A stretch of DNA of 44,569 nt from the sequence record MT331608, one strand, 5' to 3'. A model generated the notes under the pieces. That model ran no database searches and was not told the origin of the DNA. It saw only the letters and a list, made by a program, of their open reading frames with translations. This DNA comes from Escherichia phage SECphi4. Each line of letters begins with the position of its first letter. Position 1 is the stretch's first letter. Positions 1 to 40,974 of this stretch are shown piece by piece. Position numbers and translations under genes: made by a program.

Positions 1-65
1 CCCGTCCTCGCCAGTGAGCACGACCATAGGCTGGACGTCCTGATCTGCGATGCCAAAATTAGCGG
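1..65. repeat. Terminal direct duplication, identical to 44505..44569 (circular permutation or assembly overlap)
   Basis: First 65 nt of the window recur exactly as the last 65 nt. Confidence 0.95.
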
Positions 66-438
66 CTTTGATCGTTTTACCGGGGGTAAGTGCGCCGCCT
101 GTTTTGACGGGCCAGCCTAAAAGGCTGTCGTATTGCGCTGCCGTTGTATCGATCTGAGTCTCGTCATGCACGGTCATGTAAGACTCGCCCAGCAGGGCGG
201 CATACGCCACCAGATCCACGATGTTATCTTCCTGGTGCTTACGGTGCTGGCGCACCAGCTTCAGGCAGATCAGGAAGGTCCAGGCTTCTTGCTCGGTAAG
301 GTCGCGCCCGGTAAGCGCGTTAAACACGGCAGCGATTTGTTTAGCGCTGCGTTCTTCTTTCGCGTTGTCATAGCCGTTTTCTTTCCCGCGCTGTTCCATA
401 GTGGTGGCGGCGTTTTTGCAGTATTCGTATGCTTTCAT
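1..438 (-). CDS. Hypothetical protein, 5' part (146 codons) of an ORF that continues across the window junction
   Basis: ATG at 436..438 with AAGGAA SD upstream; open to position 1 in a frame that continues exactly at 44504. Confidence 0.6.
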   Translation of the reverse strand, partial: MKAYEYCKNAATTMEQRGKENGYDNAKEERSAKQIAAVFNALTGRDLTEQEAWTFLICLKLVRQHRKHQEDNIVDLVAYAALLGESYMTVHDETQIDTTAAQYDSLLGWPVKTGGALTPGKTIKAANFGIADQDVQPMVVLTGEDG

Positions 439-479
439 GATGTGTTCCTTTCTAGAGGCCATATTGCCCCGACGCGTTA

Positions 480-509
480 ACTATAGTGCAACCAACCTAT
501 TGGTTGCAA
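480..509 (-). promoter_or_regulatory. Sigma70-like promoter (TTGCAA-N18-TATAGT) overlapping an inverted repeat TGCAACCAA/TTGGTTGCA
   Basis: -35 and -10 hexamers about 45 nt upstream of the ATG at 438; architecture recurs at 2384, 15227 and 25833. Confidence 0.45.
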
Positions 510-966
510 GTGAATTTTGCAACGTTTATTGCGTAAATTTTCGGAACCAGATCGCTGCACGCCCGACGAATTGCCGCGATGTTCTTCTCGCAATCTTCAA
601 TGATGACCAGTTCCGACACGTCCGCATAGCAGACCATTTTGAATACAGCGCACGCCTTAAACTCCGGCGGCGGGGTGTCGTCCAGCATGTGGCGCATAAA
701 CAACCGGCCTGTCGGGAATACTTCCAGTTGCTCGGCGGTAGTCTCCCAACATTCGCGCTGCAGGTTTGTCAGATACGCGATCTCGAAGCCTTGCTCTTTA
801 TACATGCTCAACAGCGGCAGCATATCCATGTTAAGGTCTTCGCGTACGTGCGATTTGTGCCACTTCGCCCAAAATGTTGATTTGGTTTTTATGCCGGGGA
901 CCAGTCGGCGCGCGCATCACTTGAACCATTAATAACACCATCCAGATCACAAATCAGTAGTTTCAT
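497..966 (-). pseudogene. HAD-superfamily 5'-nucleotidase-like gene split by a -1 frameshift (or sequencing indel)
   Basis: ATG at 964..966 encodes MKLLICDLDGVI (HAD motif I DxDG) and stops after 25 codons; the -1 frame is open from 916 to 497 and contains an LDD motif; frames overlap at a C4 run and GC repeat (892..916). Confidence 0.35.
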
Positions 967-1184
967 TTTAATTCCGCCATTAAATTTTCACGTACAATAC
1001 GGGACGAGAATGCGTCGCACACAAGATGGCAATGCGCCGTCATGACAAGCCAGCCAGTTAGGTCAAGGCCTAGCAATTGATGCGGTTGGCTTGCGCGCCT
1101 TACTTTATTTCCAGGGAAAACCTGGTAGCGTTTAATTATTTCATCCACGACGCGCGGACTGCGATCGACGACTAAGATATTCAT
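963..1184 (-). CDS. Hypothetical protein (73 aa)
   Basis: ATG at 1182..1184 preceded by GAAGGAG SD; overlaps the 3' end of the Dam-like gene. Confidence 0.45.
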   Translation of the reverse strand: MNILVVDRSPRVVDEIIKRYQVFPGNKVRRASQPHQLLGLDLTGWLVMTAHCHLVCDAFSSRIVRENLMAELK

Positions 1185-1650
1185 ATAATTCTCCTTCACT
1201 CATTATCTCGATTTGTGCGCTGCCGTTTGGCGGCACTTCTTCAAAGATTATCAATTGCTGACACTTGTTGTTACTCGGCCCGACCTTACCGGTGACGGCG
1301 TGTATAAACCGGATCCGCCAGTCCAGCAAAATGATCAGGTTGGCGGTTTGCCTTGCCAGTTTGGCCCACTTCGTGGTCGTATCTTGGTTGAGCAACATTA
1401 CCGTCTTACGCCCCTGCGATGCGCAAGTCACCCACGGCAGCGGGTCGGAATACGGCGGATTGCACCACTTCCACCCGTTTAACTCTGACCAGTCAGCATC
1501 AAGCGCGCTGTGCTCTTTCGTGAAATAGCGCGGTAGCAAATGGTTGTGGTCGCTCGCCGCCATGTCGTAGCGGAATTTAAACGCCTTGCGCAGCGGTTTA
1601 AATAAAGCTGGCGGCGTGCGCCAGCTATCTTTTTGCTCACTCTTCTGCAT
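1141..1650 (-). CDS. DNA N6-adenine methyltransferase (phage Dam family)
   Basis: WRTPPALF N-terminal motif and catalytic NPPY tetrapeptide in a 169-aa ORF. Confidence 0.85.
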   Translation of the reverse strand: MQKSEQKDSWRTPPALFKPLRKAFKFRYDMAASDHNHLLPRYFTKEHSALDADWSELNGWKWCNPPYSDPLPWVTCASQGRKTVMLLNQDTTTKWAKLARQTANLIILLDWRIRFIHAVTGKVGPSNNKCQQLIIFEEVPPNGSAQIEIMSEGELYEYLSRRSQSARRG

Positions 1651-2095
1651 GGTCGGTATCTATCGCATACAGGGCAATTTTCTTACCACTGTTTAGAACG
1701 CGTTGCAGGCGCTTTGCCCCCTCGACGCTAAGCGGTCGGCAATCGGAGTAGTAGCTGCCGTTTGCGCGCCACGCCATAAGCACCAGGTCTTTTCTGTCGA
1801 TCTTAGACTGGCGACCTTTGGGGCGCACGTACTCCTCGGCCCGTTTGCAATGCTCGCGCAGACCTTCGGCAGTGATGCGGTTTAGTGCAACGCTGGTTGT
1901 GTATCCGGTGCGCTGCATAATCCCCATCAATTTGAAAAGCAGTTCGAAACGCTCCTCTAGCTCCTTGCGGACCTTCTCTTCACCTTCATAGCTTGCAAGA
2001 TAGGTGTTAGCCAGCGCGGTAGCGCCTTCTGCTTTCTCGCGTGCTTCAAGACACTGCGCTACCCAGTACGCTTTTTCTTCTTGTAAAATTTTCAT
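1637..2095 (-). CDS. Hypothetical protein with C-terminal resolvase-like HTH
   Basis: 152-aa ORF with strong AAGGAG SD; C-terminal segment resembles Hin/resolvase HTH_7 pattern. Confidence 0.45.
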   Translation of the reverse strand: MKILQEEKAYWVAQCLEAREKAEGATALANTYLASYEGEEKVRKELEERFELLFKLMGIMQRTGYTTSVALNRITAEGLREHCKRAEEYVRPKGRQSKIDRKDLVLMAWRANGSYYSDCRPLSVEGAKRLQRVLNSGKKIALYAIDTDHAEE

Positions 2096-2337
2096 TAGTT
2101 AATCTCCTTCCTGCGAATTTCTTTGCGAGGTATAAATTTGCCGTCCATTTCAACCCAGCAAGTGCCATAGCGCCACTGGGTGTTACGACCTGTTAGCTCT
2201 GCGTAGACAATCCGGCATTCATATTTATCGAGGTTATACGTGCAGGAAATCGGCAGCAGGAGACAAAAGAATAAGAACAGCACCAAACACACCCAAAAAC
2301 GTAAATCACCGTCGTCGTCAAAAAAGAATCGTTTCAT
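2095..2337 (-). CDS. Small membrane protein
   Basis: 80-aa ORF with one hydrophobic helix (CLVLFLFFCLLLPI); GAGGA SD. Confidence 0.5.
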   Translation of the reverse strand: MKRFFFDDDGDLRFWVCLVLFLFFCLLLPISCTYNLDKYECRIVYAELTGRNTQWRYGTCWVEMDGKFIPRKEIRRKEIN

Positions 2338-2383
2338 TGTTAAATCCTCATATTAAAAAAGGGCGTTCCCTTCGGACACCCTC

Positions 2384-2412
2384 AATATAATGCAACCAAT
2401 CTAACTATGCAA
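2384..2412 (-). promoter_or_regulatory. Sigma70-like promoter (TTGCAT-N17-TATATT) with two direct ATTGGTTGCA copies
   Basis: Motif copies at 2391..2400 and 2408..2417 on the complementary strand, upstream of the gene starting at 2337. Confidence 0.45.
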
Positions 2413-2417
2413 CCAAT

Positions 2418-2741
2418 TTACGCATAAAAATTCGGGTCGCGCGCGACGTCTACCAGGTAAAGGTTGCTCATGCGGTTGCCGTAGTGCCCTGGTGTGCGCT
2501 GGCGGCACACAACGGCGAAGCCTGGGGGGATTGTATTGCCAGTCTCAATAATCCACGCCACGCGCGCCCCCGATAGAGTTTTGCCGTTGCATTCGATACG
2601 TGTGCCACCATCGGCAGTATTGATGTTGCCAATTTTGCAGCCGGTGGACTTCAGACGAATGACGCCGGTTTTGCTGTCGTAGGAAAAAAGCTGATTGGTC
2701 ATTGCCACTGAAAAGTCGATGGCGTCGAATGCAGTATTCAT
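2418..2741 (-). CDS. HNH-like protein with apparently degenerate catalytic residues
   Basis: 107-aa ORF resembling phage HNH_3 layout but with conserved His positions replaced; GAGGAAAA SD. Confidence 0.35.
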   Translation of the reverse strand: MNTAFDAIDFSVAMTNQLFSYDSKTGVIRLKSTGCKIGNINTADGGTRIECNGKTLSGARVAWIIETGNTIPPGFAVVCRQRTPGHYGNRMSNLYLVDVARDPNFYA

Positions 2742-3433
2742 TTTAAATTTTCCTCGTTAACCGCTATCGCGAAGCCGCACGGGGTGAGCGACCTGATTAA
2801 TTTGGTGTGGGCAGATTTGCCTCCGAGGCGACTATACTGCTTCGAGTACCCTTTTTCAACGAAAACAGGTTTCTTCTCTGGCATACGGAAGCCGTTGCCG
2901 GTCCATAAGCAGGTCAGCTTCGGATATGAATCGCGGGCGTTGATGTATTCCGGGAATAGCGGGTGTACGTCATCCTCCGGCAGATATCCGCCATACTCCC
3001 ACGGGTCAAACGAGTGGTCCGGCTTACGCCATTGAGTGGAGAGCACGCTGCGCGGATTCTCAATCATATATGGCACTTCAAAGAAATCACCCAGGTAAGC
3101 GGCGATCTTAGCGGTGCGCACCGCCTTAAGCTGGAAGGCAGGGTCGCGGGCGCGTTTGCGCGGGAAAGCGGGCGCGCCACTCACCGCCAGATCCGTACAC
3201 GGCGGGAATGCGTATATGATATCCGGCGTGCCGAAATCACCATTCATCGCGCGGTCCACGAAGTCCAGACCGATAAACTCATTACGATATCGAATGCCAC
3301 GACCATAGATCCGGTAGTCCAGGTACGACCCGTGATCGGCTCCGGAGTAGTTGAAGCAATAACACTTATGCCCCATCTCGGCAGCACGTTCAATCATCAA
3401 GCCGCTGCCGTCAAATAATGACCAGATAATCAT
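2738..3433 (-). CDS. DNA cytosine-C5 methyltransferase-like protein
   Basis: FDGSG (motif I-like), FPPC (motif IV-like, catalytic Cys) and ENP (motif VI-like) in a 231-aa ORF. Confidence 0.65.
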   Translation of the reverse strand: MIIWSLFDGSGLMIERAAEMGHKCYCFNYSGADHGSYLDYRIYGRGIRYRNEFIGLDFVDRAMNGDFGTPDIIYAFPPCTDLAVSGAPAFPRKRARDPAFQLKAVRTAKIAAYLGDFFEVPYMIENPRSVLSTQWRKPDHSFDPWEYGGYLPEDDVHPLFPEYINARDSYPKLTCLWTGNGFRMPEKKPVFVEKGYSKQYSRLGGKSAHTKLIRSLTPCGFAIAVNEENLK

Positions 3434-4854
3434 TTGCGCGCCTTTTTAGCTTTCATGTATTCCATTAAATCGTCCTGAATGTCTCGCTTACTGTCGCGAC
3501 GCTCCGCGACCAGTTCGTCCAGTGTGCCGCGCGCCTGGATAATGTAGACGAATACAGGACGAGGGTGTCCGGCTTGCATCTGGCGAACTGGCCCGATACG
3601 CTCCACGATCTGCGCAAAGTGCTCATAGTTCCAGGTGTCTGAGAAGATAGCAAGGTGGTGTCCGCCATCCTGCAAGTTAAGGCCGTGACCCGCCGATGCC
3701 GGGTGTGCGAACATGATGGGGATCTCGCCCCTGTTCCACGCTTCCATATCCTTATTGCCTTGCTTACCCTTACCCATCGCTACGCCGTGAGGGAATTTCT
3801 TCTTAAGACGTGCCAGATCATGCTTGTACTGGTATGCGACGAGCAACGGTGCTCCGTTCAACTCCTCCACGATACTTTCCAGCGCGTCCAGCTTAGCGTC
3901 GTGAATTTTAACCCATTCGTCGGTGCGCTCGCCGTCTTCGTCCACCTTATACACGGCCCCCGAAGCAAGCTGAAGGCACTTAATAGTCTTCGAAGCAGCG
4001 TTCGCCGCCTCCACCGTTCCGCTCTCCAGTTCGGCAAATAGCTCCGCTTCGAACTGGTCATAAATCTTGCGGGCTTTCTTCGGCAGGTCCACAACAACCG
4101 GCGTATAGATCGGCTTGTCACACCCGAAGTATTCAGCCGCGTCAACTGTTAGCGACACGTCGGACAGGCGTTGTTGGATTTCTTTCTCGGAGTTCTTAAG
4201 CGGGGCGTGCTGCATAGTGAAGCTGCCAGGCTTAACAGGCTTGCTAATAAACCAGCGATCAGTGAATGCCTTATAACTACTGCCGAGGCGTTCGCCCCCG
4301 TCGACAAACCACGTCTGGCCCCATAGGTCTTTCAGCCCGTTTGGTGCGGGGGTTCCTGTCAGGTTAATCCAGCGCTTGACGTGCTTATGTGCGATCGCAG
4401 CCAGCGCACGGGCGCGCTTACTCCCCTGCTTGCTTCGATAGCCTTTCAGCTTAGTCGATTCATCGGCAACCACGACCGTAAAGGGCCACTCGTCGCCGCA
4501 ATACTCGACGAGCCACTCAACCACATCATAGTTAACACAAACCACGTTAGCGTCGCTCTCAAGCGCAGCGATGCGGTCCTTCTCCGACCCGGTGCCGTCT
4601 ACTACCAGCAGGGCTGGGAAGCGCCATTTTTCCTGTTCCGGGGGCCATGTGCCAGATGCAACGCGCAGCGGGGCCAGCACCAGTACGCGGTCCTCCTGAT
4701 TGGACAGGATGCCGGTCTGGAACATTTTATTCAGCGCCCACATGGTCGCGCCAGTTTTACCCGACCCCATTGTCGCCCATATATTGCATCGCTTATGCTT
4801 GAGGATGAACGCGGTTATCAACTTCTGATATTCGCGACGTCGGAAACGTGCCAT
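3430..4854 (-). CDS. SNF2/DEAD-like helicase
   Basis: Walker A GSGKTG and DExx box VVADE; start set at the internal ATG (MARFRRREYQ) to avoid overlap with the upstream gene. Confidence 0.8.
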   Translation of the reverse strand: MARFRRREYQKLITAFILKHKRCNIWATMGSGKTGATMWALNKMFQTGILSNQEDRVLVLAPLRVASGTWPPEQEKWRFPALLVVDGTGSEKDRIAALESDANVVCVNYDVVEWLVEYCGDEWPFTVVVADESTKLKGYRSKQGSKRARALAAIAHKHVKRWINLTGTPAPNGLKDLWGQTWFVDGGERLGSSYKAFTDRWFISKPVKPGSFTMQHAPLKNSEKEIQQRLSDVSLTVDAAEYFGCDKPIYTPVVVDLPKKARKIYDQFEAELFAELESGTVEAANAASKTIKCLQLASGAVYKVDEDGERTDEWVKIHDAKLDALESIVEELNGAPLLVAYQYKHDLARLKKKFPHGVAMGKGKQGNKDMEAWNRGEIPIMFAHPASAGHGLNLQDGGHHLAIFSDTWNYEHFAQIVERIGPVRQMQAGHPRPVFVYIIQARGTLDELVAERRDSKRDIQDDLMEYMKAKKARK

Positions 4855-4858
4855 ATCT

Positions 4859-5077
4859 TTATTCCGCCTTTTTCCAGACTTCGGTTTCACTGTTCCAGTT
4901 CCTTTTTGTGGCGTCGTAGTTGGTGCTGTGCCCGATGTGTACACCCGTCGCCCGGAAGCTCTTAAATTTTTGCCAGCACACCGTCAACGGCAGCGGGTAA
5001 TTCATGCCAGCGATAAACCATACGCGATCGCCTGGTTTGCATTCGCCCAGTGTGGTGAGTCGGTAGTGTTCTTTCAT
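4859..5077 (-). CDS. Hypothetical protein
   Basis: ORF with GGGAGAC SD 8 nt before the ATG at 5075..5077. Confidence 0.45.
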   Translation of the reverse strand: MKEHYRLTTLGECKPGDRVWFIAGMNYPLPLTVCWQKFKSFRATGVHIGHSTNYDATKRNWNSETEVWKKAE

Positions 5078-5120
5078 CGTCATGTCTCCCAAAAATGGCG
5101 GGACAAGCCCGCCGTATTAA

Positions 5121-5294
5121 TTATTTTTGCGCTGCGCGGTAGCGGCGCTGCCGTTCACGCTCTTTCTTATTGCGACACGATTTGCACTCGGCACGATACC
5201 CATCGGGGCTGCGCGCAGTTTTGCCGGTGTATTTGTGGAACTGGGATAGCGGCTTGACGCAACCGCAATTACTGCAACGTTTTTCTTCAATCAT
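5121..5294 (-). CDS. Small zinc-ribbon protein
   Basis: 57-aa ORF with CxxC...CxxC cysteine pairs; GAGGA SD. Confidence 0.45.
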   Translation of the reverse strand: MIEEKRCSNCGCVKPLSQFHKYTGKTARSPDGYRAECKSCRNKKERERQRRYRAAQK

Positions 5295-5334
5295 TTCTAA
5301 AATCCTCGGTATAGCTAACCTGCTCACTATACTG

Positions 5335-5613
5335 TTAAGCGACCAATTCAGCAACCAATAAATCACAGTCAGCTATGTTGTCAATGACGCGAACGTCCGC
5401 ACCGCGGCGGGCCATCCGCTCATGTTCTCGCACCTGGTGCGGCTTCGGTTTGCCTCCGGGGCGCTTCACTTCGACGAAAACTATTCTGCCGTTGATGATG
5501 ATAATCAGATCGGGCGCACCTGCGCGCCCCTCCCAGGCCACTTTGCGGCAGAATCCGCCGACGGCTTTCACCAGTTTCATAAGGTGACTTTGGATCTTGC
5601 CTTCTGGTGTCAT
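5335..5613 (-). CDS. VRR-NUC domain nuclease
   Basis: PDLIIIINGRIVFVEVK PD-(D/E)XK core typical of VRR-NUC; translationally coupled (ATGA overlap) to the upstream gene. Confidence 0.8.
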   Translation of the reverse strand: MTPEGKIQSHLMKLVKAVGGFCRKVAWEGRAGAPDLIIIINGRIVFVEVKRPGGKPKPHQVREHERMARRGADVRVIDNIADCDLLVAELVA

Positions 5614-5801
5614 TTAGTTTGCAATTCCACGTTACGCAGACGAAGGTCCACCGGTATATCCGATCGCCCGGTTAGCGCCAGCGCCAGGTTTTCAGGCGTG
5701 ACAAGTGCCGTAATGGTCTTGCCACGTTCCAGTCTAATGACGATTCGAATCTCGTCGTTTTCCGCCGCGCCAGCGCGCATAATGCTCATTTCTGCTTTCA
5801 T
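5610..5801 (-). CDS. Hypothetical protein
   Basis: 63-aa ORF with AGGAAG SD; located between the polymerase and VRR-NUC genes. Confidence 0.45.
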   Translation of the reverse strand: MKAEMSIMRAGAAENDEIRIVIRLERGKTITALVTPENLALALTGRSDIPVDLRLRNVELQTK

Positions 5802-5805
5802 AATC

Positions 5806-8097
5806 TTACTTCCTGTATCTGTACATAATGTCGCCTTCGGCGGCAAGGGGGAAGCCTTTCGCCCAAATAGGCAGGTCGCACATCAGCGCGCAAAGCTCCT
5901 CGGTCGTGTAGTCGTCGGTGTCCGGCACTTCTGTGATCAATTCATCATGCACCGATAGAACGATTTCATAGCCCGCAGCTTCAACGCCAGGCATGGACCA
6001 TGCGAGAATATCGCGGCACAACGCCTGTACGATGTTCTCCGTCAGTTTGCCGCCGTAGGTGTACTGGAACCCCCACTGGCGCGTCGTATGATTCTCGCCC
6101 TGATATTTAATGCGTGTGCTGGTGCGCTTCTTGCCGGTGTCCTCGTCAATCTCTGTCGTGACAGACAGCGCGATGCCGGGGTAGCTCATGATGCGCCCCG
6201 ACGGCAACTCAATTTTCAACCACCACCCAGCGGCGTTCGGGTCGTCGCGCTCCTCGTCAAAGGTTGGGTCGTGCTTCGCCTTCGTACGGACAATCTTGAG
6301 CGCTTTTCTACCGTCCGGGCGAACGTTCGCGCCAGCCCAGTATGCTTTACCCGGATTGCGGATTGCACACAACACCGCGTCCTCAAGCTCGGCCCAAAAG
6401 GCTACCGTCTTCGGGTGAGCCTCACGCCACATACGTTTGATTGCGTCACAAGTAAGCCATACGTTTTTCGGCAGTATGTATGTTGGGCGCTCGTCCTTCT
6501 TGCCCGGCTTCGGCGGGCGCTTCGCTTCGTTAATGCGAGCGTACTCATAACCACGTTTCGCCGCCGCCCAAATGTGATCGGGGAATGTGCCCTTCATCAC
6601 GTCTGCCATAGTGTAAAGGTCAAGGCCCAGGTTTTTAGCGAACTGCAAAAACGCGGCAACGCCGCCACCATAGCCCAGTCCCAATTCGCACGCCTTACCA
6701 ATCTGGCGTAAGTCCTTGCGGTTGGCTTTAATGTAATCCGGGTCAAGGCCGAACATCTTACCGGCAGTCTCGCAATAGATATCGCGACCGGCCTTAAAGA
6801 CCATTAACGCTGTTTTCTCGCCAGCGATCCAGGCAAGGCCGCGCCCTTCCACGTTGGAGTAGTCAGCTACGACAAACTTCTTGCCCTTTGCAGGGATGAT
6901 GCACCCGCGAACGGTAGAGGCGGTCAGCTTCGATATGTCATACGCCCAGTGCGCTGTCCCACGTAACAGGGAGTTGATGCCGTTGGTGAGCATGTGCGAC
7001 CTGACCCAAAAAGCGACGTCGCTCTCGCCTTCGCGGCGCTTAATCTTCCCTTCGTTGTCGTCGCTGTACTCGCCACGCGCTAGGTTTTGAGGTTGGAAGC
7101 CTTTACCGGCCCAGCGTAGCGTGCGCTTTGCCCCACCATACTGAAGACAACCCCGGCGGCGACCATCGGCAGACAAGCCATTGACGAGCGGATTGTATTT
7201 AGTCGATGCCGTTGATGACGCCCCGAGGCGCATTTCGATAAGCGCTTTGCCCTCGTCCGGGAAGTCTGGGTCTTCCAGTAGGTCGTTTAGCGTGGATTTC
7301 TGCGCGTTGTGTATTGTGAATGCTGGCGCAATATCACGCAGGATTGGCAGGAAGTCATTGCCGGTCAGCTTACCGCCAAATCGCTCCCAGGCTTCTTCCT
7401 TCAATTCTTCCTTATGCGCCTGCACCGCTCTGATCGCGGCGTTAGCCAGGTCAACGTCCACATAGAAGCCGCGGTCGTTAATCAACTGGTCTATAAGCAG
7501 GATTTCATCTTCCTTCGGAGTATTGCCCCAGTCCGGTATGCGCCAGTAGACTTCACGCATTGCGATAATATCCAGCGCGGCATAGCGCAGAAATTTGGCC
7601 CACTCTTCTGGGTGAGTCTCGCGAGTGTAGCGGCGGATTTTGTAGGTCTTAGGGGTAGGCTTACAGAACCGTTTGATCAGCGCCTTGCCCGCCTTATCCT
7701 TCGCATGCTCCGCGTCAACGCCCAGCACCTGGCATTGCATATCGAGGCTTCCGGGCAGCGCGTGGCGAAAGGCCATAATCATGGTATCTTCGATCTGGCA
7801 CACTGGCAGGTCAATGCCCCACTTCTCGCGAATGACCAGGCGGTCAAACAGAAGGCCGTTAGCCATCACGATTTTTGCTTTCTTGCGGGATACCTGGCGG
7901 AGCGCCTTGCGCAGTTCACGCGGCATTGTGGGGGATTCAGTGCAATCCCATGTCTGCACGCGGCCCTCGTCGATGGCGTAGGTGCAAATCATAATCTCGG
8001 TTGATGGGTGTTCTGCGTAGGCGTAAGCGCCGACTTTCTTCAGGTCCACATCGCTAAACGTCTCGGTGTCGAGAAACAGGCGTTCGAAGTATTTCAT
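5806..8097 (-). CDS. DNA polymerase I (family A) with N-terminal 3'-5' exonuclease domain
   Basis: 763 aa; Exo I motif FLDTET at the N-terminus; polymerase motif C LSVHDE near the C-terminus. Confidence 0.9.
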   Translation of the reverse strand: MKYFERLFLDTETFSDVDLKKVGAYAYAEHPSTEIMICTYAIDEGRVQTWDCTESPTMPRELRKALRQVSRKKAKIVMANGLLFDRLVIREKWGIDLPVCQIEDTMIMAFRHALPGSLDMQCQVLGVDAEHAKDKAGKALIKRFCKPTPKTYKIRRYTRETHPEEWAKFLRYAALDIIAMREVYWRIPDWGNTPKEDEILLIDQLINDRGFYVDVDLANAAIRAVQAHKEELKEEAWERFGGKLTGNDFLPILRDIAPAFTIHNAQKSTLNDLLEDPDFPDEGKALIEMRLGASSTASTKYNPLVNGLSADGRRRGCLQYGGAKRTLRWAGKGFQPQNLARGEYSDDNEGKIKRREGESDVAFWVRSHMLTNGINSLLRGTAHWAYDISKLTASTVRGCIIPAKGKKFVVADYSNVEGRGLAWIAGEKTALMVFKAGRDIYCETAGKMFGLDPDYIKANRKDLRQIGKACELGLGYGGGVAAFLQFAKNLGLDLYTMADVMKGTFPDHIWAAAKRGYEYARINEAKRPPKPGKKDERPTYILPKNVWLTCDAIKRMWREAHPKTVAFWAELEDAVLCAIRNPGKAYWAGANVRPDGRKALKIVRTKAKHDPTFDEERDDPNAAGWWLKIELPSGRIMSYPGIALSVTTEIDEDTGKKRTSTRIKYQGENHTTRQWGFQYTYGGKLTENIVQALCRDILAWSMPGVEAAGYEIVLSVHDELITEVPDTDDYTTEELCALMCDLPIWAKGFPLAAEGDIMYRYRK

Positions 8098-8264
8098 TGC
8101 TTTATCCTCACTACGGCGTCAGCGCTGCCGATCAGGGAGAAGATGCCGTCTGACAGGGCAATCTCTTCGCCGTTGTTGCGAATCTCGGCAACTGTGAAAT
8201 ATTCCCCCAGTAGCTTAGACCATACTTTCATCCCGACTTTTACTTCGCTGGCTTTAATACGCAT
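8094..8264 (-). CDS. Small hypothetical protein
   Basis: 56-aa ORF whose stop overlaps the polymerase start (ATGA). Confidence 0.35.
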   Translation of the reverse strand: MRIKASEVKVGMKVWSKLLGEYFTVAEIRNNGEEIALSDGIFSLIGSADAVVRIKQ

Positions 8265-8276
8265 TTTTCATTGTCC

Positions 8277-8304
8277 TATTAAAAAGCCCGCATTAAGCGG
8301 GCTT
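8277..8304 (-). terminator. Rho-independent terminator downstream of the SSB gene
   Basis: 8-bp GC-rich stem AAGCCCGC/GCGGGCTT with 5-nt loop followed by a U run on the minus strand. Confidence 0.55.
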
Positions 8305-8322
8305 GAATAGTGGGCTTTGCCC

Positions 8323-9048
8323 TTAACGGCGGCGACGTTTACGAGGCTTTTCATCTTCGTCATCGTCTTCGTCATCGTCGCGGCGCTTGGATTTTTTGGA
8401 CTTGCGCGGTTTGTCGTCTTCGTCATCGTCATCACGACGTTTTGACTTCTTAGACTTGCGCGGTGCTTCGTCTTCGTCATCGTCGCCCAGGTCTTCGTCG
8501 GAACATGAAGACCCGCCACCTCCGAAGGCTTCGCCGTCTTCACGGAATCGCAGACCCAGCAAGCCAGCCCCGAGACCCTTGCCGTTGGTATTGTTCCATG
8601 CCCAAATATCAAGGGACACGTTGCAATAACAACCGGAGTAGATCTCCTGGCCTTCAATCTCGTCGCCGTCGATGGTCAGACCTTGTTCAGTCTGCTTCTC
8701 GCCGAGTGACGTTTGAATGATTGGCTGTTTGAACGATTTGGCGTTGATGTACAACATGCCTTCGAATTCTTCGGTTACTTCGTCGCGCTCGTCACCGTCG
8801 CGCACTGCGCATTCCTTAGAATCCTGGGCGTAGTGGCGGTCCATCCACTTATCGGCATTCTTCTCGGATTTCAGCTTGTCGGTGAGCACTGCGCGCGCTG
8901 CCGCTTCCACTTTGTCCACCTGCGGATCTTCTTTATCAAGAAGAATCACGGCGCGGTATGCCGGTTTTTGTCCATCCTGTTTCGGGGTATCACGTTCCCA
9001 GATTTTCAGGAAGCATACGCGCACTTTTTTCAGGTTGACTTTAGCCAT
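8323..9048 (-). CDS. Single-stranded DNA-binding protein (DUF2815 / T7 gp2.5-like) with mixed-charge repeat tail
   Basis: MAKVNLKKVRV N-terminus and glycine-rich core typical of DUF2815; C-terminal tandem PRKSKKSKRRDDD(D)EDD repeats. Confidence 0.7.
   Translation of the reverse strand: MAKVNLKKVRVCFLKIWERDTPKQDGQKPAYRAVILLDKEDPQVDKVEAAARAVLTDKLKSEKNADKWMDRHYAQDSKECAVRDGDERDEVTEEFEGMLYINAKSFKQPIIQTSLGEKQTEQGLTIDGDEIEGQEIYSGCYCNVSLDIWAWNNTNGKGLGAGLLGLRFREDGEAFGGGGSSCSDEDLGDDDEDEAPRKSKKSKRRDDDDEDDKPRKSKKSKRRDDDEDDDEDEKPRKRRRR
8326..8490. repeat. Imperfect tandem DNA repeat (about 57-bp unit) encoding the SSB C-terminal repeats
   Basis: Repeated ...gacttgcgcgg...cgtcttcgtcatcgtc... units visible in the sequence. 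Confidence 0.7.
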
Positions 9049-9138
9049 TTTCCAATTCCTCATTTTCACATTTATCGGGGTTATTGGAAGCCACCCCGTT
9101 CGGCTTGGTTGCTAATTTACTTGGTTGCGCCGGAGCGG

Positions 9139-9381
9139 TCAAGCATTTTCATTAAAAAGATTTCTGGTAACGTAGTTGGTCGCGTTCTCGATCCAGCTTA
9201 ACGGCGGTCGGTCGATGTTCTTCTCCACCAAGCCGACGGCAGCGTCGTTATAGCCGTCATCCAGCCAGCGGGTCGGATGTCGAATCATCCAGGCCACCAT
9301 TAATACGCACTGCACACAATGCAGGATAAAGCCCAGCGCGCCGATAACAAACATCAATAAGATTGCGAACACTTTATTCAT
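9139..9381 (-). CDS. Small membrane protein
   Basis: 80-aa ORF with hydrophobic N-terminal helices; GAGGA SD. Confidence 0.5.
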   Translation of the reverse strand: MNKVFAILLMFVIGALGFILHCVQCVLMVAWMIRHPTRWLDDGYNDAAVGLVEKNIDRPPLSWIENATNYVTRNLFNENA

Positions 9382-10792
9382 TGCTTAAGTCCTCGTCAGT
9401 AGCTTCAGACCACGCAGGGCGCGGGTCGTCGATTGGTGCTAATGCCGGTTTAGCCGGTGCGCGCGTGATTTTATCACACAGCTTCGCCCATACTTTCGGT
9501 TTCTCGTCCTTCAGTACCTTCTCGGCATCCGTAGGACTGAGCAATGTTTCTTTGTACATCACATCGCGCTTGATCCGGGCCTTCGTGAAGATTTCAATCA
9601 CTTCGCTCTCGTCCGCCCACTTGCGATTCCCTTCCTTACCGGCAACCATCTTGAGGCCCAGCGATTCGCCATCGCCTGCCATTACGGCCTTGAATACAGC
9701 GGACTCGATAGCCTTGATGTGCTGGCGCATTGCGTCAAGACCTTCATATGCCTTGCGCAGTTCCGCGGAGGTCATAGCGCCTGGTGCCGCTTCTTTCTTG
9801 CCACGCTTCGCACGTCGTGCCGCTTTGCGGGCTTTGCGGTCGTGATTGGCGCATTCTTCCTCTGTCGCAATACTCACGTCGTCGCCCAGGTCTTCGTCTG
9901 TTGCCGTTGGTGGGGTCATCGTGTCGATTGCGGCCTTAGCGCGGGCGCTACACTGATCCGCAAATCTGCACCACTGACACGCATCAACGCTCGGTCGGAA
10001 GTCGGCACTGGTGAGTCCCTTTTTGCCGCGGGCGTACGCTTCCCGGGCGGCGATAGCACGCTTGGACGCAAACTTCGCGAATATCTCCAGGGCTTCTACC
10101 GAAATATCCCACTCCGACGCCCCGCCGCAATACGGCTGGAAGATAACCAGGCGCACGGTCGTAATGTCGTACATGGTTTTCAGCTTGCGCAGCAGGCCCA
10201 GCGCATACAACATAAGCTGTTTGTTTTCTTTCGCCTCGACCTTATGCCGCCCCGTCTTCAGGTCGCCAACAATCAGCATGTACGTGCCGTCGGTCTTCTT
10301 CATGACCATGACCATATCTGCAGTTCCGAACGTCTTAACCCGGTTGCCGTCGATCTCGAAGCCAGAGTGTAGGACGCGGGTGAGATCGGCGCGCATCTCA
10401 AGCTGAACAAACTCCGCCACTTCGAGGAGCGGTCGCCAGTGGTCGATGTACGCGTCGCACTGTTTCACCATATCGTCATTGACCAGTACGCCGCCTTTCG
10501 GTGCTTTCGGGTGTGCCTTTACCGGCCCCTTACCTTCGTTCTCGACGTAGCACCCTTTGTACGTCTTCGCGGTTATCAGCTTCTCCCCGGCAATGATGCG
10601 GTTGAGCACGACTTCAGATACGGTGTGCATACTAGTACCGTTAATCGCCGCTTGCCCGGATTCGTTCGGGATACCTTGTTCTACCACCAGGGCGGCAGGG
10701 CAACCCATCCATTTTTTAGCACCGGATGGGCCGAGTAATGAATGCTCCGTGTTGCTACCGGATTGCGTTTTACGTTTTGGTTTAATCGCCAT
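9374..10792 (-). CDS. DUF2800-type PD-(D/E)XK (Cas4-like) nuclease
   Basis: N-terminal HSLLGPSGAKKWMGCP signature; 472 aa; adjacent to DUF2815 SSB and the polymerase. Confidence 0.7.
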   Translation of the reverse strand: MAIKPKRKTQSGSNTEHSLLGPSGAKKWMGCPAALVVEQGIPNESGQAAINGTSMHTVSEVVLNRIIAGEKLITAKTYKGCYVENEGKGPVKAHPKAPKGGVLVNDDMVKQCDAYIDHWRPLLEVAEFVQLEMRADLTRVLHSGFEIDGNRVKTFGTADMVMVMKKTDGTYMLIVGDLKTGRHKVEAKENKQLMLYALGLLRKLKTMYDITTVRLVIFQPYCGGASEWDISVEALEIFAKFASKRAIAAREAYARGKKGLTSADFRPSVDACQWCRFADQCSARAKAAIDTMTPPTATDEDLGDDVSIATEEECANHDRKARKAARRAKRGKKEAAPGAMTSAELRKAYEGLDAMRQHIKAIESAVFKAVMAGDGESLGLKMVAGKEGNRKWADESEVIEIFTKARIKRDVMYKETLLSPTDAEKVLKDEKPKVWAKLCDKITRAPAKPALAPIDDPRPAWSEATDEDLSNE

Positions 10793-10980
10793 TATTCCAC
10801 CCGTGTAAATTGAGCAATGTAATAATCGTGTTCAACATTGGCCTGCTTCGCGTCTGCGTTCATTGTAAAAGCCAGGGCGCAGGCTTTCCCCCAACAGCGA
10901 AGCCAGTTCTCATGCCTAGTTATTTCTGGTAGCTCGTCGCCAGTGATACGGCAACGAAATAAAACAAAGAATTCAGTCAT
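10792..10980 (-). CDS. Hypothetical protein
   Basis: 62-aa ORF with GGGAGA SD; overlaps neighbours by 1 nt. Confidence 0.4.
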   Translation of the reverse strand: MTEFFVLFRCRITGDELPEITRHENWLRCWGKACALAFTMNADAKQANVEHDYYIAQFTRVE

Positions 10981-11231
10981 TATTTTGTCTCCCAGCGGTC
11001 AATTGTTTTTGCTTCGGATGCAACGGCGAAGCGAACATATTCCAGATTGGAATCCGCCCAAATATAAAAGTAGGGGTTAGTAAAGGTGGTGCGCTTAATT
11101 TGCGCGGGGGTGTTACGGCGTTTATCTATTACGGCAACGCGTGACTGAAAGCTGCCGATGCGTTCGAATAGCCAATAATATGAGCGCTGGTCGCGGGAGT
11201 CCACCGCCTCGATTAGCGTGAAGCGTGCCAT
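10980..11231 (-). CDS. Hypothetical protein
   Basis: 83-aa ORF downstream of a terminator hairpin; GAGGACGAG SD. Confidence 0.45.
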   Translation of the reverse strand: MARFTLIEAVDSRDQRSYYWLFERIGSFQSRVAVIDKRRNTPAQIKRTTFTNPYFYIWADSNLEYVRFAVASEAKTIDRWETK

Positions 11232-11241
11232 TGTCTCGTCC

Positions 11242-11271
11242 TCTAAAAAGAGGCCCGCTAATCTGCGGGCC
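11242..11271 (-). terminator. Rho-independent terminator downstream of the acidic repeat protein gene
   Basis: Perfect 7-bp stem GGCCCGC/GCGGGCC with 6-nt loop followed by a U run on the minus strand. Confidence 0.6.
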
Positions 11272-11279
11272 GGAATATA

Positions 11280-11798
11280 TTAGTCTTCCAGTTCGAAATA
11301 GGTTTCGACGATTTCTTTTAACTCTGTGTGGAAGTCTTCGACGTCGTCGTCTTCCAGCTTGGCGATTGATTTGATCTCGAACGATTCCAGCAGGTCGTCG
11401 AATTCGTCGTTCGCGTCGTCGTCGTCACCACCAGCGATAATAGCGGCGTACTGTTTGATCTCGTCGCGCATCTCTGCCAGCGGGTCGGCATCTTTCTTGC
11501 CTTTGCCTTTCGCCGGAGCTTTTTTGGTTTTCGCCGGTTTTTCGTCTTCGGCTTCTTCATCGTCGTCATCTTCTACGACTTCTTTTTTGGCCTTACCTTT
11601 AGCCGGTGCTTTTTTGGTTTTCGCCGGTGCTTCGTCTTCGGTTTCATCGTCGTCATCTTCTACGACTTCTTTCTTAGCCTTAGACGGCTTCTTGTCTTCC
11701 TGCTTACCCACGGCAGCGCCAACGGTTTCATAATGCTTAGCGATGGTTTCCAGTGCTACTACGCCGCGAGTAATCAGGTTTACGATTTGTTCAAACAT
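11280..11798 (-). CDS. Mixed-charge tandem-repeat protein; first gene of the minus-strand arm
   Basis: ATG at 11796..11798 with GGAGA SD; 173 aa with two roughly 30-aa repeats KKEVVEDDDDE..PAKTKKAPAKGK and an acidic C-terminus. Confidence 0.6.
   Translation of the reverse strand: MFEQIVNLITRGVVALETIAKHYETVGAAVGKQEDKKPSKAKKEVVEDDDDETEDEAPAKTKKAPAKGKAKKEVVEDDDDEEAEDEKPAKTKKAPAKGKGKKDADPLAEMRDEIKQYAAIIAGGDDDDANDEFDDLLESFEIKSIAKLEDDDVEDFHTELKEIVETYFELED
11490..11690. repeat. Tandem 90-bp DNA repeat (2 copies) inside the acidic protein gene
   Basis: Near-identical gccgg(a/t)gcttttttggttttcgccgg...catcgtcgtcatcttctacgacttc units at about 11512 and 11602. Confidence 0.8.
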
Positions 11799-12138
11799 GG
11801 TATATCTCCGATTGGTTAAGTTTAGGTGTCGGCAGTTAACTTCGTCGGTGGCCTTAACATATTGCCAGGTTACGCGTTCTCCCGTTCGGGTAGTGGACCT
11901 GGTTATATAATCACGGTTGGGAATCCTGACACTTCGATCCGGCCCCTGCGTTGCCCCTCTCCAGTTTGCGTCCTGCATCCTGTCGACGAGGTGAATATTA
12001 GATTGGTTGCATGAGGGAGTCAACAACTAATTTAAAAAAAAGCGCCGAAGCAAAATGCGACGGCGCTAACCAATAAGAGACAATGAGACGGGAATTATTA
12101 TTACACGCGTGCGCGCCCGTTTCAATATTCCAGAGGAG

Positions 12139-12167
12139 TTGACACCCTGCGGTTTTAGGTGTAGTTT
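12139..12167 (+). promoter_or_regulatory. Candidate sigma70 promoter for the plus-strand arm (TTGACA-N17-TAGTTT)
   Basis: Perfect -35 hexamer with weak -10, about 35 nt upstream of the ATG at 12199. Confidence 0.3.
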
Positions 12168-12198
12168 CATTGGTCATTAACCAACCGGAGACAGAACA

Positions 12199-12528
12199 AT
12201 GAATATAAACGACGCAATCGAAATGTTAACTAAGACTGTTGGCAGTGAGACTAGCCGGTCCTGGGCCTATACCGATGCCGTGGGGGCTGTATTATTTGAA
12301 ATCGAACGTCTGCGACTTACCGAAAAAGAATTACGCGCGAAGCTGGAATTACTCAACGGTACGGCAGCCAGCAAGCTGCAAAAGCACAATGAGGAAATGG
12401 AAGAATATAAAAAACAGGTTATCCGTTTGCGCGCCGAGGGCAAATCCTGGGCGATGATTGCCGAGTTGACCGGAATTAATCAGAGCACAGTGCGCTCCTG
12501 GGTACGCAATAATAAAACTTCTAAGTAA
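12199..12528 (+). CDS. HTH DNA-binding protein (putative transcriptional regulator)
   Basis: 109 aa; C-terminal SWAMIAELTGINQSTVRSWV helix-turn-helix; GGAG SD. Confidence 0.55.
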   Translation: MNINDAIEMLTKTVGSETSRSWAYTDAVGAVLFEIERLRLTEKELRAKLELLNGTAASKLQKHNEEMEEYKKQVIRLRAEGKSWAMIAELTGINQSTVRSWVRNNKTSK

Positions 12529-12538
12529 GGCCGCGGCA

Positions 12539-14803
12539 ATGAGCTTAATTAAATTCGCTGTAACACGACCCGCTAAAAAAGGCGAAAAAGCCAGGGCGGA
12601 AAACTTCCAGATGACTACCGAAGAGTTTTTCGAATTTATCAATGATGCGAAAGAAATCTCCTCGGTGCATATCAACAAGACGGAAGATAAAGCCGAGTAT
12701 GCTCGCCGCAAGCGTAAGGCCGACGGCATCGTGGCGTATACCCGTGACGGCCTACGCCGCAAGACCAGTGCGGTGGACCGCTCGATCCTGTTCTTCGATA
12801 TCGACCGAACCAACACCCGCACCCTACGCCGCTGCCGTAAGGCGTTCATTGACGCGGGGCTGGAACACGTATTTCACACCACAACCGGCGACCGCCACCC
12901 GCTGAAAGGCGGCACGCGTTGCGCTCGATTCCTGGTACTCACTGACAAGCCTGTACCGGCTGAAGACCTGGGCCGCGTCCAGTATGCGCTATTACACCAA
13001 CTTGGTCTGTCAGATGTGGACTTCGACGATTGCACGAAAGACACAAACCGCCTGATGTACCTGCCACACCAGCAGTCTGTTATTAAGTGCCACTACGGCA
13101 AGCGCGCCCGTGTCCGTCGTCTGCTTCGCCTGGCTGACAAGCTGGGAGTTGAGAAGGAAGAAGTACGCCGCGAACTAACCCAGGGCGATGACGGCGTGGC
13201 GGACGGTATTCTGGATTGGTGCTTCCAGGCGGGATTCGAGGAGTTATCTTCCGGTCGCGGTTATGAAGTGCCGTGCCCGAACGAACATCTGCACAGCGGC
13301 GAAGGGTCGACGGCTATCATGGTCAAGGATGGCGAGATCCGTTTCAAGTGTATGCACACCGGCAACGAGTGTTGCTCGGAACTGAACAGACACCAGCACC
13401 TGGCGCTACGTCTTATTGGTATCCCGGACCACCTGAACGTCGAGCCACACAATATGTCCCGTAAGCAAATCGCCGCCACCCTTCCAGGTCTGGACGACGA
13501 AGAAGTCGAATCCTTATATGAACATATTGTTGATGCGGTCGGAGACGGCGACGAGTACGGCGTATGTACCGACGCTGACCTGGATAACGAACCGGTCGCA
13601 CTGTTCAGTAAGCACGACCCGATCATAGAAGGCCTGGTCAACTTCAAATCGACCTGGTATATGGCGGGTGAGTCGAATATCGGTAAGTCTTTCTACGTGC
13701 TGGGCCAGATGGGCGCGGTTGCCGCCGGTATTCCGTTTGGCGGTGCGAAGGTCGTACAGTCTCATTGCTTCTATTTCGACGCGGAAGGTGGCGAAGCCTC
13801 CAACCAGCGTAAAGAAGCATTGCAGATTAAATACGAGCACGACCTGGACAAGCTGCACATTATAGACCTGCAGTCACGCGGCTGGGATATCACCAGCAAA
13901 TCAGGCTTGCGCGAAGTTATCAGCTTTATCAACCGCACCGCTAACGGCGAACCGGTTGGCCTGGTGGCGTTCGACTCACTCAACCAGACTGTTGCGCTGC
14001 GGTCCGCCGATGCTAAACCGTTTGACGAGAACAACGCCAGCGATATGGGTGAAGTGGTCAAGGCGCTGAAGGCCATCGCGGAAAATACAGGTGGCAGTGC
14101 GGGCGTCATCCACCACCCGGCTAAAGGTGCAAACGGCAGCAGAACCCCACGCGGGTCCGGCGCGCTGCATGGTGCTGTCGATTCTGCGTTCTTCCTGGAA
14201 CAGCCGGACGACAACCAGCCCGGACAATTGAACCTGTATCATGAGAAGTCACGTAACGGCATCAAGCAAGCGCCGCGCGGCTTCGTCCTGCTCAAGTGCA
14301 AGGTGAAGGTGGATCTCCGCAAGTCAGAAGCGTTCGAGGCGCACCAGTCCAACAGCACCGGGCCAGACTTCGGCGATGTGGTTGCCGGATGGGACATCAA
14401 GCCGATTGCCTCCACGCCACGCGACGAGACTCTCTACCTCGTACCGGTTGCCCTGGCACCATTCGCTATTGAACAGGCGAAGGCGGCGGGCAAGGCCGCG
14501 GTTAAGGAAGAGAACACCGCCGGACCGCGCAACGAAAAAGAGAAAGTGCTTTATGCGGCACTGGAAAAACTGATGGAAGATAACCCGGACCATACTGGAT
14601 TCAGTAAATCGGCAATCGTCCGCCAGGCGGGACTCGCGAAAGGTGGAACTTCGACGAAGGCAATCGACGATATGGTGGCGCGCGGCGTGCTCGGTTTTTA
14701 TACAGACCCGCACACTGGGGCCATCTACGGGTCGTCGAATATCGTCATCAAAACGAACATACCCATCACGCTTTCGGCGACCGATGACGATTTAAAAGAT
14801 TAA
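12539..14803 (+). CDS. Primase-helicase (N-terminal primase-like domain, C-terminal RecA/DnaB-like ATPase)
   Basis: 754 aa; Walker A GESNIGKS in the C-terminal half. Confidence 0.7.
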   Translation: MSLIKFAVTRPAKKGEKARAENFQMTTEEFFEFINDAKEISSVHINKTEDKAEYARRKRKADGIVAYTRDGLRRKTSAVDRSILFFDIDRTNTRTLRRCRKAFIDAGLEHVFHTTTGDRHPLKGGTRCARFLVLTDKPVPAEDLGRVQYALLHQLGLSDVDFDDCTKDTNRLMYLPHQQSVIKCHYGKRARVRRLLRLADKLGVEKEEVRRELTQGDDGVADGILDWCFQAGFEELSSGRGYEVPCPNEHLHSGEGSTAIMVKDGEIRFKCMHTGNECCSELNRHQHLALRLIGIPDHLNVEPHNMSRKQIAATLPGLDDEEVESLYEHIVDAVGDGDEYGVCTDADLDNEPVALFSKHDPIIEGLVNFKSTWYMAGESNIGKSFYVLGQMGAVAAGIPFGGAKVVQSHCFYFDAEGGEASNQRKEALQIKYEHDLDKLHIIDLQSRGWDITSKSGLREVISFINRTANGEPVGLVAFDSLNQTVALRSADAKPFDENNASDMGEVVKALKAIAENTGGSAGVIHHPAKGANGSRTPRGSGALHGAVDSAFFLEQPDDNQPGQLNLYHEKSRNGIKQAPRGFVLLKCKVKVDLRKSEAFEAHQSNSTGPDFGDVVAGWDIKPIASTPRDETLYLVPVALAPFAIEQAKAAGKAAVKEENTAGPRNEKEKVLYAALEKLMEDNPDHTGFSKSAIVRQAGLAKGGTSTKAIDDMVARGVLGFYTDPHTGAIYGSSNIVIKTNIPITLSATDDDLKD

Positions 14804-14884
14804 ATTCTGCGCGCATTGGTTGCCGTTTTGAGTGTTTTTATCCGGTCGTATTGGTTGCCGTGTAGTGTAAATATAATGAATAGT

Positions 14885-15071
14885 TATGCAATAAAACTGC
14901 ATAAAGTAAGCGGGACAAAAAGCGGGACAAACAAGAGGCGGGACAAAGCGGGACAGCACCCCCGTCCCGCCCCGGATGACGCGGCCTGGATAGGAGCGGG
15001 ACAGGCGGGACAAACCCCAGTCTTTCAGACTAGACGGGGGTCAATGGCCCCCCTCGTCTGAGACTGAATAA
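14885..15071. repeat. Iteron element copy A: six or more GCGGGACA direct repeats plus a conserved imperfect palindrome
   Basis: Near-identical to 31562..31740, including a 55-bp identical block cccagtctttcagactagacgggggtcaatggcccccctcgtctgagactgaataa. Confidence 0.85.
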
Positions 15072-15226
15072 AATCCGGGGATTGCAAAATACACGGCAGC
15101 ATAATGCGAAGTGCGGTCGCGGATGAACTAGGCAACCAATGCGATTTGCATTATGCGAAGTGAAAAATGCAGTTTGCAGTTGCAGCAGATAGCGATCAAC
15201 TTTTTCATGCGCGTGATTAATATTGG

Positions 15227-15255
15227 TTGCATTCAACCCGGCGCCTTGCTATATT
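15227..15255 (+). promoter_or_regulatory. Sigma70-like promoter (TTGCAT-N17-TATATT) with ATTGGTTGCA copies at 15222 and 15253
   Basis: Same architecture as the minus-strand promoters; 21-bp block tatattggttgcacaccaaca is shared with the promoter at 25833. Confidence 0.5.
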
Positions 15256-15282
15256 GGTTGCACACCAACATGAGGGCGGAAC

Positions 15283-15462
15283 ATGAAAACCGAAATGGTT
15301 AATAAGCGCGAAATCAAGATCGGCGATACGGTAGTCCACAACGGGGAGCTTCGCACTGTGTGCAAGCGAGCGTTTAGCATCGATGAATTTATGGGCCTGC
15401 TACTTTGGGGCGACAGCTATCGTTTAGGGCATAAACTGGTTGAGAGGGTTACGGAACTATGA
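15283..15462 (+). CDS. Small hypothetical protein (59 aa)
   Basis: ATG with GAGGG SD; stop overlaps the next ATG; not in the ORF track because it is under 60 aa. Confidence 0.45.
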   Translation: MKTEMVNKREIKIGDTVVHNGELRTVCKRAFSIDEFMGLLLWGDSYRLGHKLVERVTEL

Positions 15463-15785
15463 AAGCGATTATCTGGAATTACGCAATGGCCATGGCAGCG
15501 GCACAAGAAGCGGCGGAGTTCGCCGGTGAAGGAGCGGAAGCGGTCGAAAGACTATCGGCAGCGTGGTCCGTTGTTCGCGTCACGCAGCAGGCCATCGCCT
15601 GTATGCTTGAGCGCCGCTTCGACACGATGGCTGAGATCCAGCCGCTGGCGAACGCAATCCAGGACTACGCGCTTGCATTTGCCCGTGAGCGCCTGGCGTA
15701 TCGCTTCGGGATCGGCGAGACGGCAGTGACAAACGTCGCCCGGATTAAAGCCCAGCGCGAACTATTCGCCCAGCTTGCGAAATAA
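15459..15785 (+). CDS. Hypothetical protein
   Basis: 108-aa ORF translationally coupled to neighbours. Confidence 0.5.
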   Translation: MKAIIWNYAMAMAAAQEAAEFAGEGAEAVERLSAAWSVVRVTQQAIACMLERRFDTMAEIQPLANAIQDYALAFARERLAYRFGIGETAVTNVARIKAQRELFAQLAK

Positions 15786-15794
15786 GGGGCCAAA

Positions 15795-16064
15795 ATGAGC
15801 CGCAGACGGGCGAAACTGCTTTCGTGGCATATTCCACTGCATTGCATACGAATATGGGCTAAGAATGCGACTGAGGGCGATTCTGTATTCTGGTGCTATC
15901 GCGACGACGTTAAGCCGTTGACGCAGACTCGCTACTTGCACCAGTTCGCAGCGCAACACGATTTCAGGGTGCGGACCTCCTTGCAACCAATGGGGATTCG
16001 TATTACATTACGCCGGAAGCCCGCCGTTGAGCGGGTAGGCAAACACTGGAGACTGAGCAAATGA
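15795..16064 (+). CDS. Hypothetical protein
   Basis: 89-aa ORF with AAGGGG SD. Confidence 0.45.
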   Translation: MSRRRAKLLSWHIPLHCIRIWAKNATEGDSVFWCYRDDVKPLTQTRYLHQFAAQHDFRVRTSLQPMGIRITLRRKPAVERVGKHWRLSK

Positions 16065-16213
16065 CACCAATGCAAATAGCACTAATGGCGGGATTCTCGC
16101 AGAAGTTTATTTCAGTAGACGCCTGCATAGATGACTACGAGTATAATGGCGTCGCTACGGTGTGCGATGGCGACACGAAGACTATCGAAGAGATCGAGGA
16201 GACTGAACTATGA
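16061..16213 (+). CDS. Small hypothetical protein (50 aa)
   Basis: ORF bridging two annotated ORFs with ATGA-type overlaps at both ends. Confidence 0.35.
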   Translation: MTPMQIALMAGFSQKFISVDACIDDYEYNGVATVCDGDTKTIEEIEETEL

Positions 16214-17277: not shown

Positions 17278-17294
17278 TTATGCAAGCGTGATAT

Positions 17295-18340: not shown

Positions 18341-18356
18341 TACGGGGTAACACAGT

Positions 18357-18524: not shown

Positions 18525-18532
18525 ACAATCAA

Positions 18533-40972: not shown

Positions 40973-40974
40973 AA

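Follow-up and report, generated by a model that had tools for sequence, protein, structure and literature searches.

The phosphatase domain of T4 Pnkp (PDB 1LTQ, 5UJ0), bacterial Pnkp1 (4XRP/4XRU) and the Pfam family PF25109 have a capless HAD fold in common. The class B/C acid phosphatases (PF03767; PDB 2I33, 3PCT, AphA) belong to HAD subfamily III. A phage protein of 156 aa can be compared with both groups: by profile it resembles the acid phosphatases as a member of subfamily III, and PNKP 3'-phosphatase domains, like this protein, have the capless fold, a DxDGT/V motif, an S/T-x-R motif, a motif III lysine and an acidic motif IV. However, unlike T4 Pnkp, the phage protein stands alone, with no kinase domain, and a PNKP-type activity is putative, as its substrate may be either 3'-phosphorylated ends of nucleic acids or free nucleotides. 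The class B/C acid phosphatases, moreover, are secreted or periplasmic proteins of 210-260 aa with extra cap elements, whereas the phage protein is cytoplasmic and minimal. With NT5C, or 5'(3')-deoxyribonucleotidase, it has only the HAD superfamily and the DxD nucleophile motif in common.

The closest described relatives of the locus studied here are the 156-aa orthologues of the Dhillonviruses, such as SECphi18 gp50 (YP_010844211.1), Oekolampad QXV82996.1 and JLBYU37 UGO56825.1, which belong to PHROG 415. We analyzed the genome record of Escherichia phage SECphi4 (MT331608), and the whole stretch of 44,569 nucleotides is called the window below. SECphi4 is itself a Dhillonvirus, and megablast searches with 300..1300 and 1..25000 of the window returned more than 150 Dhillonvirus genomes at approximately 86-93% identity. 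Its locus shows 90-95% DNA identity and 94-97% conceptual protein identity to the 156-aa orthologues and lies in the same gene order, with a Dam methylase, ksap1, the phosphatase and DUF6378. Unlike the orthologues, the SECphi4 copy is one base short, which shifts the frame after codon 21, and it carries two substitutions, R69L and A39S, that are absent from the extracted relatives. We consider this locus to be a pseudogene of the Dhillonvirus HAD (PNKP-like) phosphatase that arose through a genuine 1-nt deletion in codons 21/22, and we place the probability of this reading at roughly 0.9.

The intact protein and its family

The initial annotation had proposed a HAD-type nucleotidase of the NT5C family. 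The HAD assignment was borne out by the match to PHROG 415 and by PNKP profile and fold matches, whereas the NT5C label had to be abandoned. The conceptual fusion of the two frames matched PHROG 415 ('polynucleotide kinase') with E = 4.5e-32 over residues 1-154, and it showed weak matches to Pfam PF03767 and PF25109. For the Dhillonvirus protein, the PF25109 match (E = 0.16, 12.6 bits) was below the gathering cut-off of 27.6. An exhaustive HMMER search recovered 40 representatives at E <= 1e-3, which were mostly stand-alone proteins of 150-175 aa. Among 27 diverse homologues, 17 matched PF25109 (HAD_PNKP), with a best E of 1.1e-24, and 20 matched PF03767, while none of the 27 matched an NT5C-type family at E <= 0.001. 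When the family profile was compared with solved structures, the matches included Pnkp1 (4xrp, E = 1.5e-11), a class C acid phosphatase (2i33, E = 1.4e-9) and the T4 Pnkp phosphatase domain (5uj0, E = 5e-9; 1ltq, E = 7e-8). In addition, an AlphaFold2 model of an intact orthologue (P0031; pLDDT 95.1, pTM 0.90), which begins with a strand at 2-7, had the T4 Pnkp 3'-phosphatase domain 5uj0_A as its best size-matched fold neighbour in Foldseek (TM 0.72/0.78, rmsd 2.6 Å). All Foldseek matches at E <= 0.001 were HAD-fold phosphatases or HAD domains of larger proteins, and NT5C-type nucleotidases were found neither among the PDB profile matches nor among the top 50 fold matches. These profile and model comparisons identify the intact protein as a true HAD phosphatase whose nearest counterparts are the PNKP 3'-phosphatase domains and the class B/C acid phosphatases.

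The catalytic motifs of the intact protein could be assigned from the alignment of the 27 homologues, in which D7, D9, W33, R69 and D125 are invariant and R19, P24, T77, R92 and K104 show conservation of 90% or more. Motif I is the DxD of D7-L-D9-G-V. Motif II is T66, at a position that is S or T in the family, followed by R69. Motif III is K104 (AAG, 656..658, minus strand) in the segment DDTPPPEFK, which aligns to K-P-x-P-E of 3e58, and motif IV is E124-D125 (GAAGAT, 593..598, minus strand) in IIEDC. An LDD triplet that had been taken for motif IV is formed by residues 95-97, just upstream of the motif III lysine, and is not that motif.

To describe the gene in relatives, we extracted 18 orthologues, from JLBYU37, Pubbukkers, SECphi18, Over9000 and 14 IMG/VR contigs. 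All 18 have an uninterrupted gene of 471 nt, with translations of at least 156 aa. Most of the approximately 150 close database records also match the phosphatase at full length. Of 190 records in the phage collection, 167 have at least 80% of the protein as one continuous match, and protein identity reaches at least 95% in 133. The orthologues have been annotated variously as hypothetical protein, putative nucleotidase, phosphatase, acid phosphatase or polynucleotide kinase. One short protein in the same 90% cluster (P0011, 74 aa) was no truncated phosphatase but the product of the neighbouring ksap1-like gene.

Structure of the SECphi4 locus and position of the lost base

In SECphi4, the disrupted gene lies at 497..966 on the minus strand and measures 470 nt, compared with 471 nt (156 codons plus stop) in the orthologues. 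Its first reading frame, ORF1 (889..966, minus strand), runs for 25 codons, MKLLICDLDGVINGSSDARADWSPA, from the ATG at 966 and ends at the TAA at 891..889. It includes DLDGV, the HAD motif I (DxDGV), with Asp7 at 948..946 and Asp9 at 942..940. The remainder of the gene lies in the -1 (equivalently +2) frame (497..916, minus strand), which is open from 916 and has its TAG stop at 499..497. Its translation contains LVPGIKTKSTFW and CARRLVPGIKTKSTFWAKWHKSHVREDLNMDMLPL and ends in AKFTCNQ. The homologue of residues 22-156 corresponds to this frame from 904 down to 500, with 94.8% identity (tblastn against the window). Thus, a single uninterrupted frame joining motif I to motifs II-IV is absent from SECphi4. 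The initial annotation had read the locus in this way, as a gene of 25 codons and a stop with the rest in the -1 frame, and both the frames and the coordinates were confirmed. The same is true of the overlap of the two frames at 892..916, which does contain a GCGCGCGC run (908..915) and a C4 run (896..899). The arrangement is evidently not a product of chance, judging from the 90-95% DNA identity of both halves to one uninterrupted 156-codon gene in the relatives.

The first ATG of the downstream frame opens an ORF of 110 aa (497..829, minus strand), which is recorded in GenBank as a 'hypothetical protein' (QJI52515.1). The Asp nucleophile is missing from this product, and its start is not preceded by a good Shine-Dalgarno sequence.

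Alignment with JLBYU37, Pubbukkers and SECphi18 placed the missing C between the C4 run and the GCGCGCGC run, inside neither of them. The deletion lies at 903..905 (minus strand), where the ancestral GAC|CTG (Asp21-Leu22) has become GA-C-TGG, with a single C left at 904. In 16 of the 18 relatives this site reads GAC CTG, and the other two have GAT CTG and GAC TTG. The C4 run on the minus strand (G4 on the plus strand) owes its origin to two substitutions, GTG CCG to GTC CCC, both of them silent in the downstream frame, and the GCGCGCGC run, which comprises codons Ala18-Arg19-Ala20, is shared by several intact relatives. The earlier suggestion of an indel in the homopolymer or the GC repeat was therefore not upheld, since the alignment shows that the base was lost from GAC|CTG, outside both runs. 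Slippage at the C4 or (GC)4 run was rejected as the mutational cause because a gap placed in either run costs many more mismatches than a loss at GAC|CTG combined with the two synonymous changes.

We also observed that the lost base is part of a CCWGG (Dcm) site in most relatives, within GACCTGG (window 901-906), but we draw no conclusion from this. The window contains 154 CCWGG sites, and the phage has its own C5-cytosine methyltransferase gene (2738..3433, minus strand) and its own Dam methylase gene (1141..1650, minus strand).

On the upstream side, the phosphatase gene is preceded by a ksap1-like gene (963-1184, minus strand; listed as an ORF of 963..1199 from a GTG). Ksap1 is a 74-aa protein of SECphi18 that activates the KpAvs2 defence system (PMC11564622). 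In the window, the stop codon of the ksap1-like gene (TGA) shares bases with the phosphatase ATG as ATGA, which suggests that the two genes are translationally coupled. Directly downstream of the broken gene lies a DUF6378 gene (PF19905, E = 8.4e-10; 169 aa), which is split by the ends of the record (1-438 and approximately 44436-44504, minus strand). Because this gene has a good Shine-Dalgarno sequence of its own, strong polarity would not be expected. Its SECphi18 orthologue is annotated as a 'nucleotide modification associated protein'. Two distant homologues of the phosphatase, P0060 (267 aa) and P0063 (286 aa), carry a DUF6378-like domain fused C-terminally to the PNKP-like HAD phosphatase (E = 0.0066 with Pfam; E = 0.002 in BLASTP against the DUF6378 protein of the window), and this fusion hints at a shared pathway for the two adjacent Dhillonvirus genes.

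Explanations of the interruption

A single-base discrepancy in one deposited genome might reflect an indel of sequencing or assembly, in which case the true genome would have GACCTGG and an intact gene. The record is indeed unpolished assembler output, as it carries a 65-nt terminal overlap of assembly style. The site, however, is a CC dinucleotide and not a homopolymer, and the same allele also has the R69L substitution at an invariant residue. Furthermore, the frameshift was reproduced elsewhere. A Logan assembly from run ERR10819175 (L004) matches the window without any difference in the 571 nt surrounding the site, missing base included, and departs from it in 6.3 kb by one SNP, at window 1993, which identifies it as a separately sequenced derivative of SECphi4. 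In addition, the truncated 110-aa product was called on 14 contigs from NCBI and Logan. All of these contigs probably come from one laboratory stock, and it is for this stock, not for a natural population, that they prove the loss of the base. Finally, no other gene was frameshifted in the 44.5-kb window. When the 64 CDSs of Over9000 were compared with the window by tblastn, the only one split into two frames was the phosphatase (the gp31 product), and it was again the only one when all Over9000 ORFs of at least 60 aa were used. Other matches in two frames came from the wrap-around of the record or from ORFs, antisense or spurious, that span intergenic indels, and the remaining incomplete matches were the divergent C-terminus of the tail fibre and small or variable proteins. 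Since the frameshift was repeated in L004, was found on 14 contigs and stands alone in the window, a sequencing error is very unlikely, and this option of the initial annotation can be regarded as effectively refuted.

Several observations on these records may be noted in their own right. The record is circularly permuted, and positions 1-65 of the window recur exactly at 44505-44569 as a terminal overlap of the assembler type, which leaves 44,504 nt of unique genome; the start of the record cuts through a gene. The SNP at window 1993 (L004 position 1837) lies in a 152-aa ORF (1637..2095, minus strand) and is an A on the minus strand of the window and a C in L004. The ORF is an unannotated gene, and the SNP in it may have arisen as an escaper mutation. 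Escaper mutants of SECphi4 have been sequenced (10.1101/2022.08.27.505566), and run ERR10819175 fits that work, although we infer the link. The lateral tail-fibre gene of the window matched only the first 43% of the Over9000 protein, at 56% identity, and two small genes upstream of it show 52-69% identity. Compared with close relatives, this region (window 41967-42905 and approximately 40670-41631) looks like a swapped receptor-binding module.

A second explanation accepts the deletion and holds that the gene was split functionally, with the 25-aa peptide, the 110-aa C-terminal fragment or both acting as separate products. The 110-aa ORF is indeed annotated in GenBank, and a metagenomic homologue, P0035, likewise begins with MDMLP. 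However, P0035 has a further internal deletion and has thus also decayed, and among the 18 relatives examined the two parts never occur as separate genes. Two invariant residues, D7 and D9, are missing from the 110-aa fragment, as is the first beta-strand of its Rossmann-like fold, and the ATG at 829 that opens it has no convincing ribosome-binding site. We therefore regard a functional split as highly improbable.

The least probable explanation is programmed recoding, in which a -1 (or +2) ribosomal frameshift within 892..916 would restore the full-length phosphatase. Two routes are conceivable but unsupported. In the first, tRNA-Pro would slip from CCG to CCC in U-CCC-CGG; the C4 run is unique to SECphi4 and lies 5' of the 0-frame stop, and a P-site slip there would give ADWSPGIKTKS, two residues off the ancestral sequence. 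The second would use the (GC)4 repeat, where the codons GCG and CGC might allow re-pairing 2 nt further downstream. None of the 7 0-frame heptamers across 892..916, however, fits the slippery pattern X XXY YYZ, the nearest being C CCG GCA, and a Shine-Dalgarno-like stimulator is absent upstream. No stimulatory RNA structure was found in the 126 nt around and downstream of the overlap, which fold less stably than shuffled sequences (z = +1.16; 178 of the 200 shuffles were equally or more stable). The two-frame arrangement is found in none of the 18 extracted relatives, all of which are in frame, so that there is no conserved recoding site, and any product of recoding would have a leucine at the invariant Arg69. 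Thus, with no slippery heptamer, stimulatory structure or conservation of the shift, the recoding option raised by the initial annotation finds no support.

Decay in SECphi4, losses in other phages and their meaning

The remaining option of the initial annotation, a decaying gene, is supported by the reproduced frameshift, by the replacement of an invariant arginine and by independent disruptions in other phages. For the SECphi4 pseudogene, the following course may be proposed. Ribosomes that initiate at the ATG at 966, through coupling to termination on the ksap1-like gene upstream, would make a peptide of 25 residues that ends at the TAA at 891..889. The other 135 codons would be out of frame, and at most a 110-aa fragment lacking the Asp7/Asp9 motif could be made from the ATG at 829. 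Such a peptide with an out-of-frame remainder would amount to a null allele. We infer that no full-length protein is made, and the loss is presumably older than the isolation of the phage.

The second lesion concerns codon 69, which follows the motif II Thr66. This codon is CTG (Leu) in SECphi4 (761..763, minus strand), whereas the conserved arginine after motif II is present in all relatives. Arg213 of T4 Pnkp is essential for its phosphatase. In the profile alignment, Arg69, which is invariant in the 27 diverse homologues, is paired with this residue. In addition, A39S affects a mostly conserved position. The R69L substitution suggests either that the SECphi4 copy is already under relaxed selection or that it has taken two hits. 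The ratio of lineage-specific nonsynonymous to synonymous codons was 4:5 in SECphi4 vs. 11:47 in 17 relatives pooled, a difference that is suggestive but not significant (Fisher p = 0.10). The two substitutions beside the deletion are synonymous in the downstream frame, so that this frame was under purifying selection for most of its history and the inactivation is recent.

The gene has also been damaged or lost in other phages. In the phage 'rolling', the phosphatase gene has an out-of-frame internal deletion (113 aa). P0036 has a frameshift after RECW; P0035, which starts at MDMLP, has an internal deletion; and in P0044 there is a clean in-frame deletion (38 aa) between the two DLVP-coding repeats. 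The phosphatase match is limited to residues 37-156 in SM_W22 (H102) and to residues 100-156 in GeorgBuechner/Bas16 (H103), in which the first 99 codons are missing. We further noted that Bas16 has been reported with a truncated Ksap1, that P0038 is a remnant of a ksap1-phosphatase fusion, and that the ksap1-phosphatase region shows recurrent deletions in other Dhillonviruses (P0044, P0038, P0035, GeorgBuechner and SM_W22). A gene so strongly conserved and yet repeatedly lost behaves like an accessory gene that is useful but can be dispensed with.

We see in the locus no new mechanism but an ordinary pseudogene, produced by a frameshift in a member of a known family of phage HAD phosphatases. 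The annotation of QJI52515.1 (110 aa) should accordingly state that it represents the 3' portion of a phosphatase pseudogene with a frameshift. It is unlikely that the loss of the phosphatase underlies some of the differences in defence sensitivity between SECphi4 and the near-isogenic SECphi18 and SECphi6, or that it was selected as an escape from a host sensor; if it were so, defence systems that leave 3'-phosphate ends or act via nucleotide pools would be examples to consider. In the Retron-Eco2 paper, phosphatase appears as a reagent only. Since laboratory growth of SECphi4 is normal, the phage can do without the phosphatase under these conditions, and growth on E. coli K-12 does not require the gene. 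SECphi4, which is widely used with SECphi18 and SECphi6 in studies of anti-phage defence, is thus a natural knockout of a gene that is conserved in almost all Dhillonviruses.
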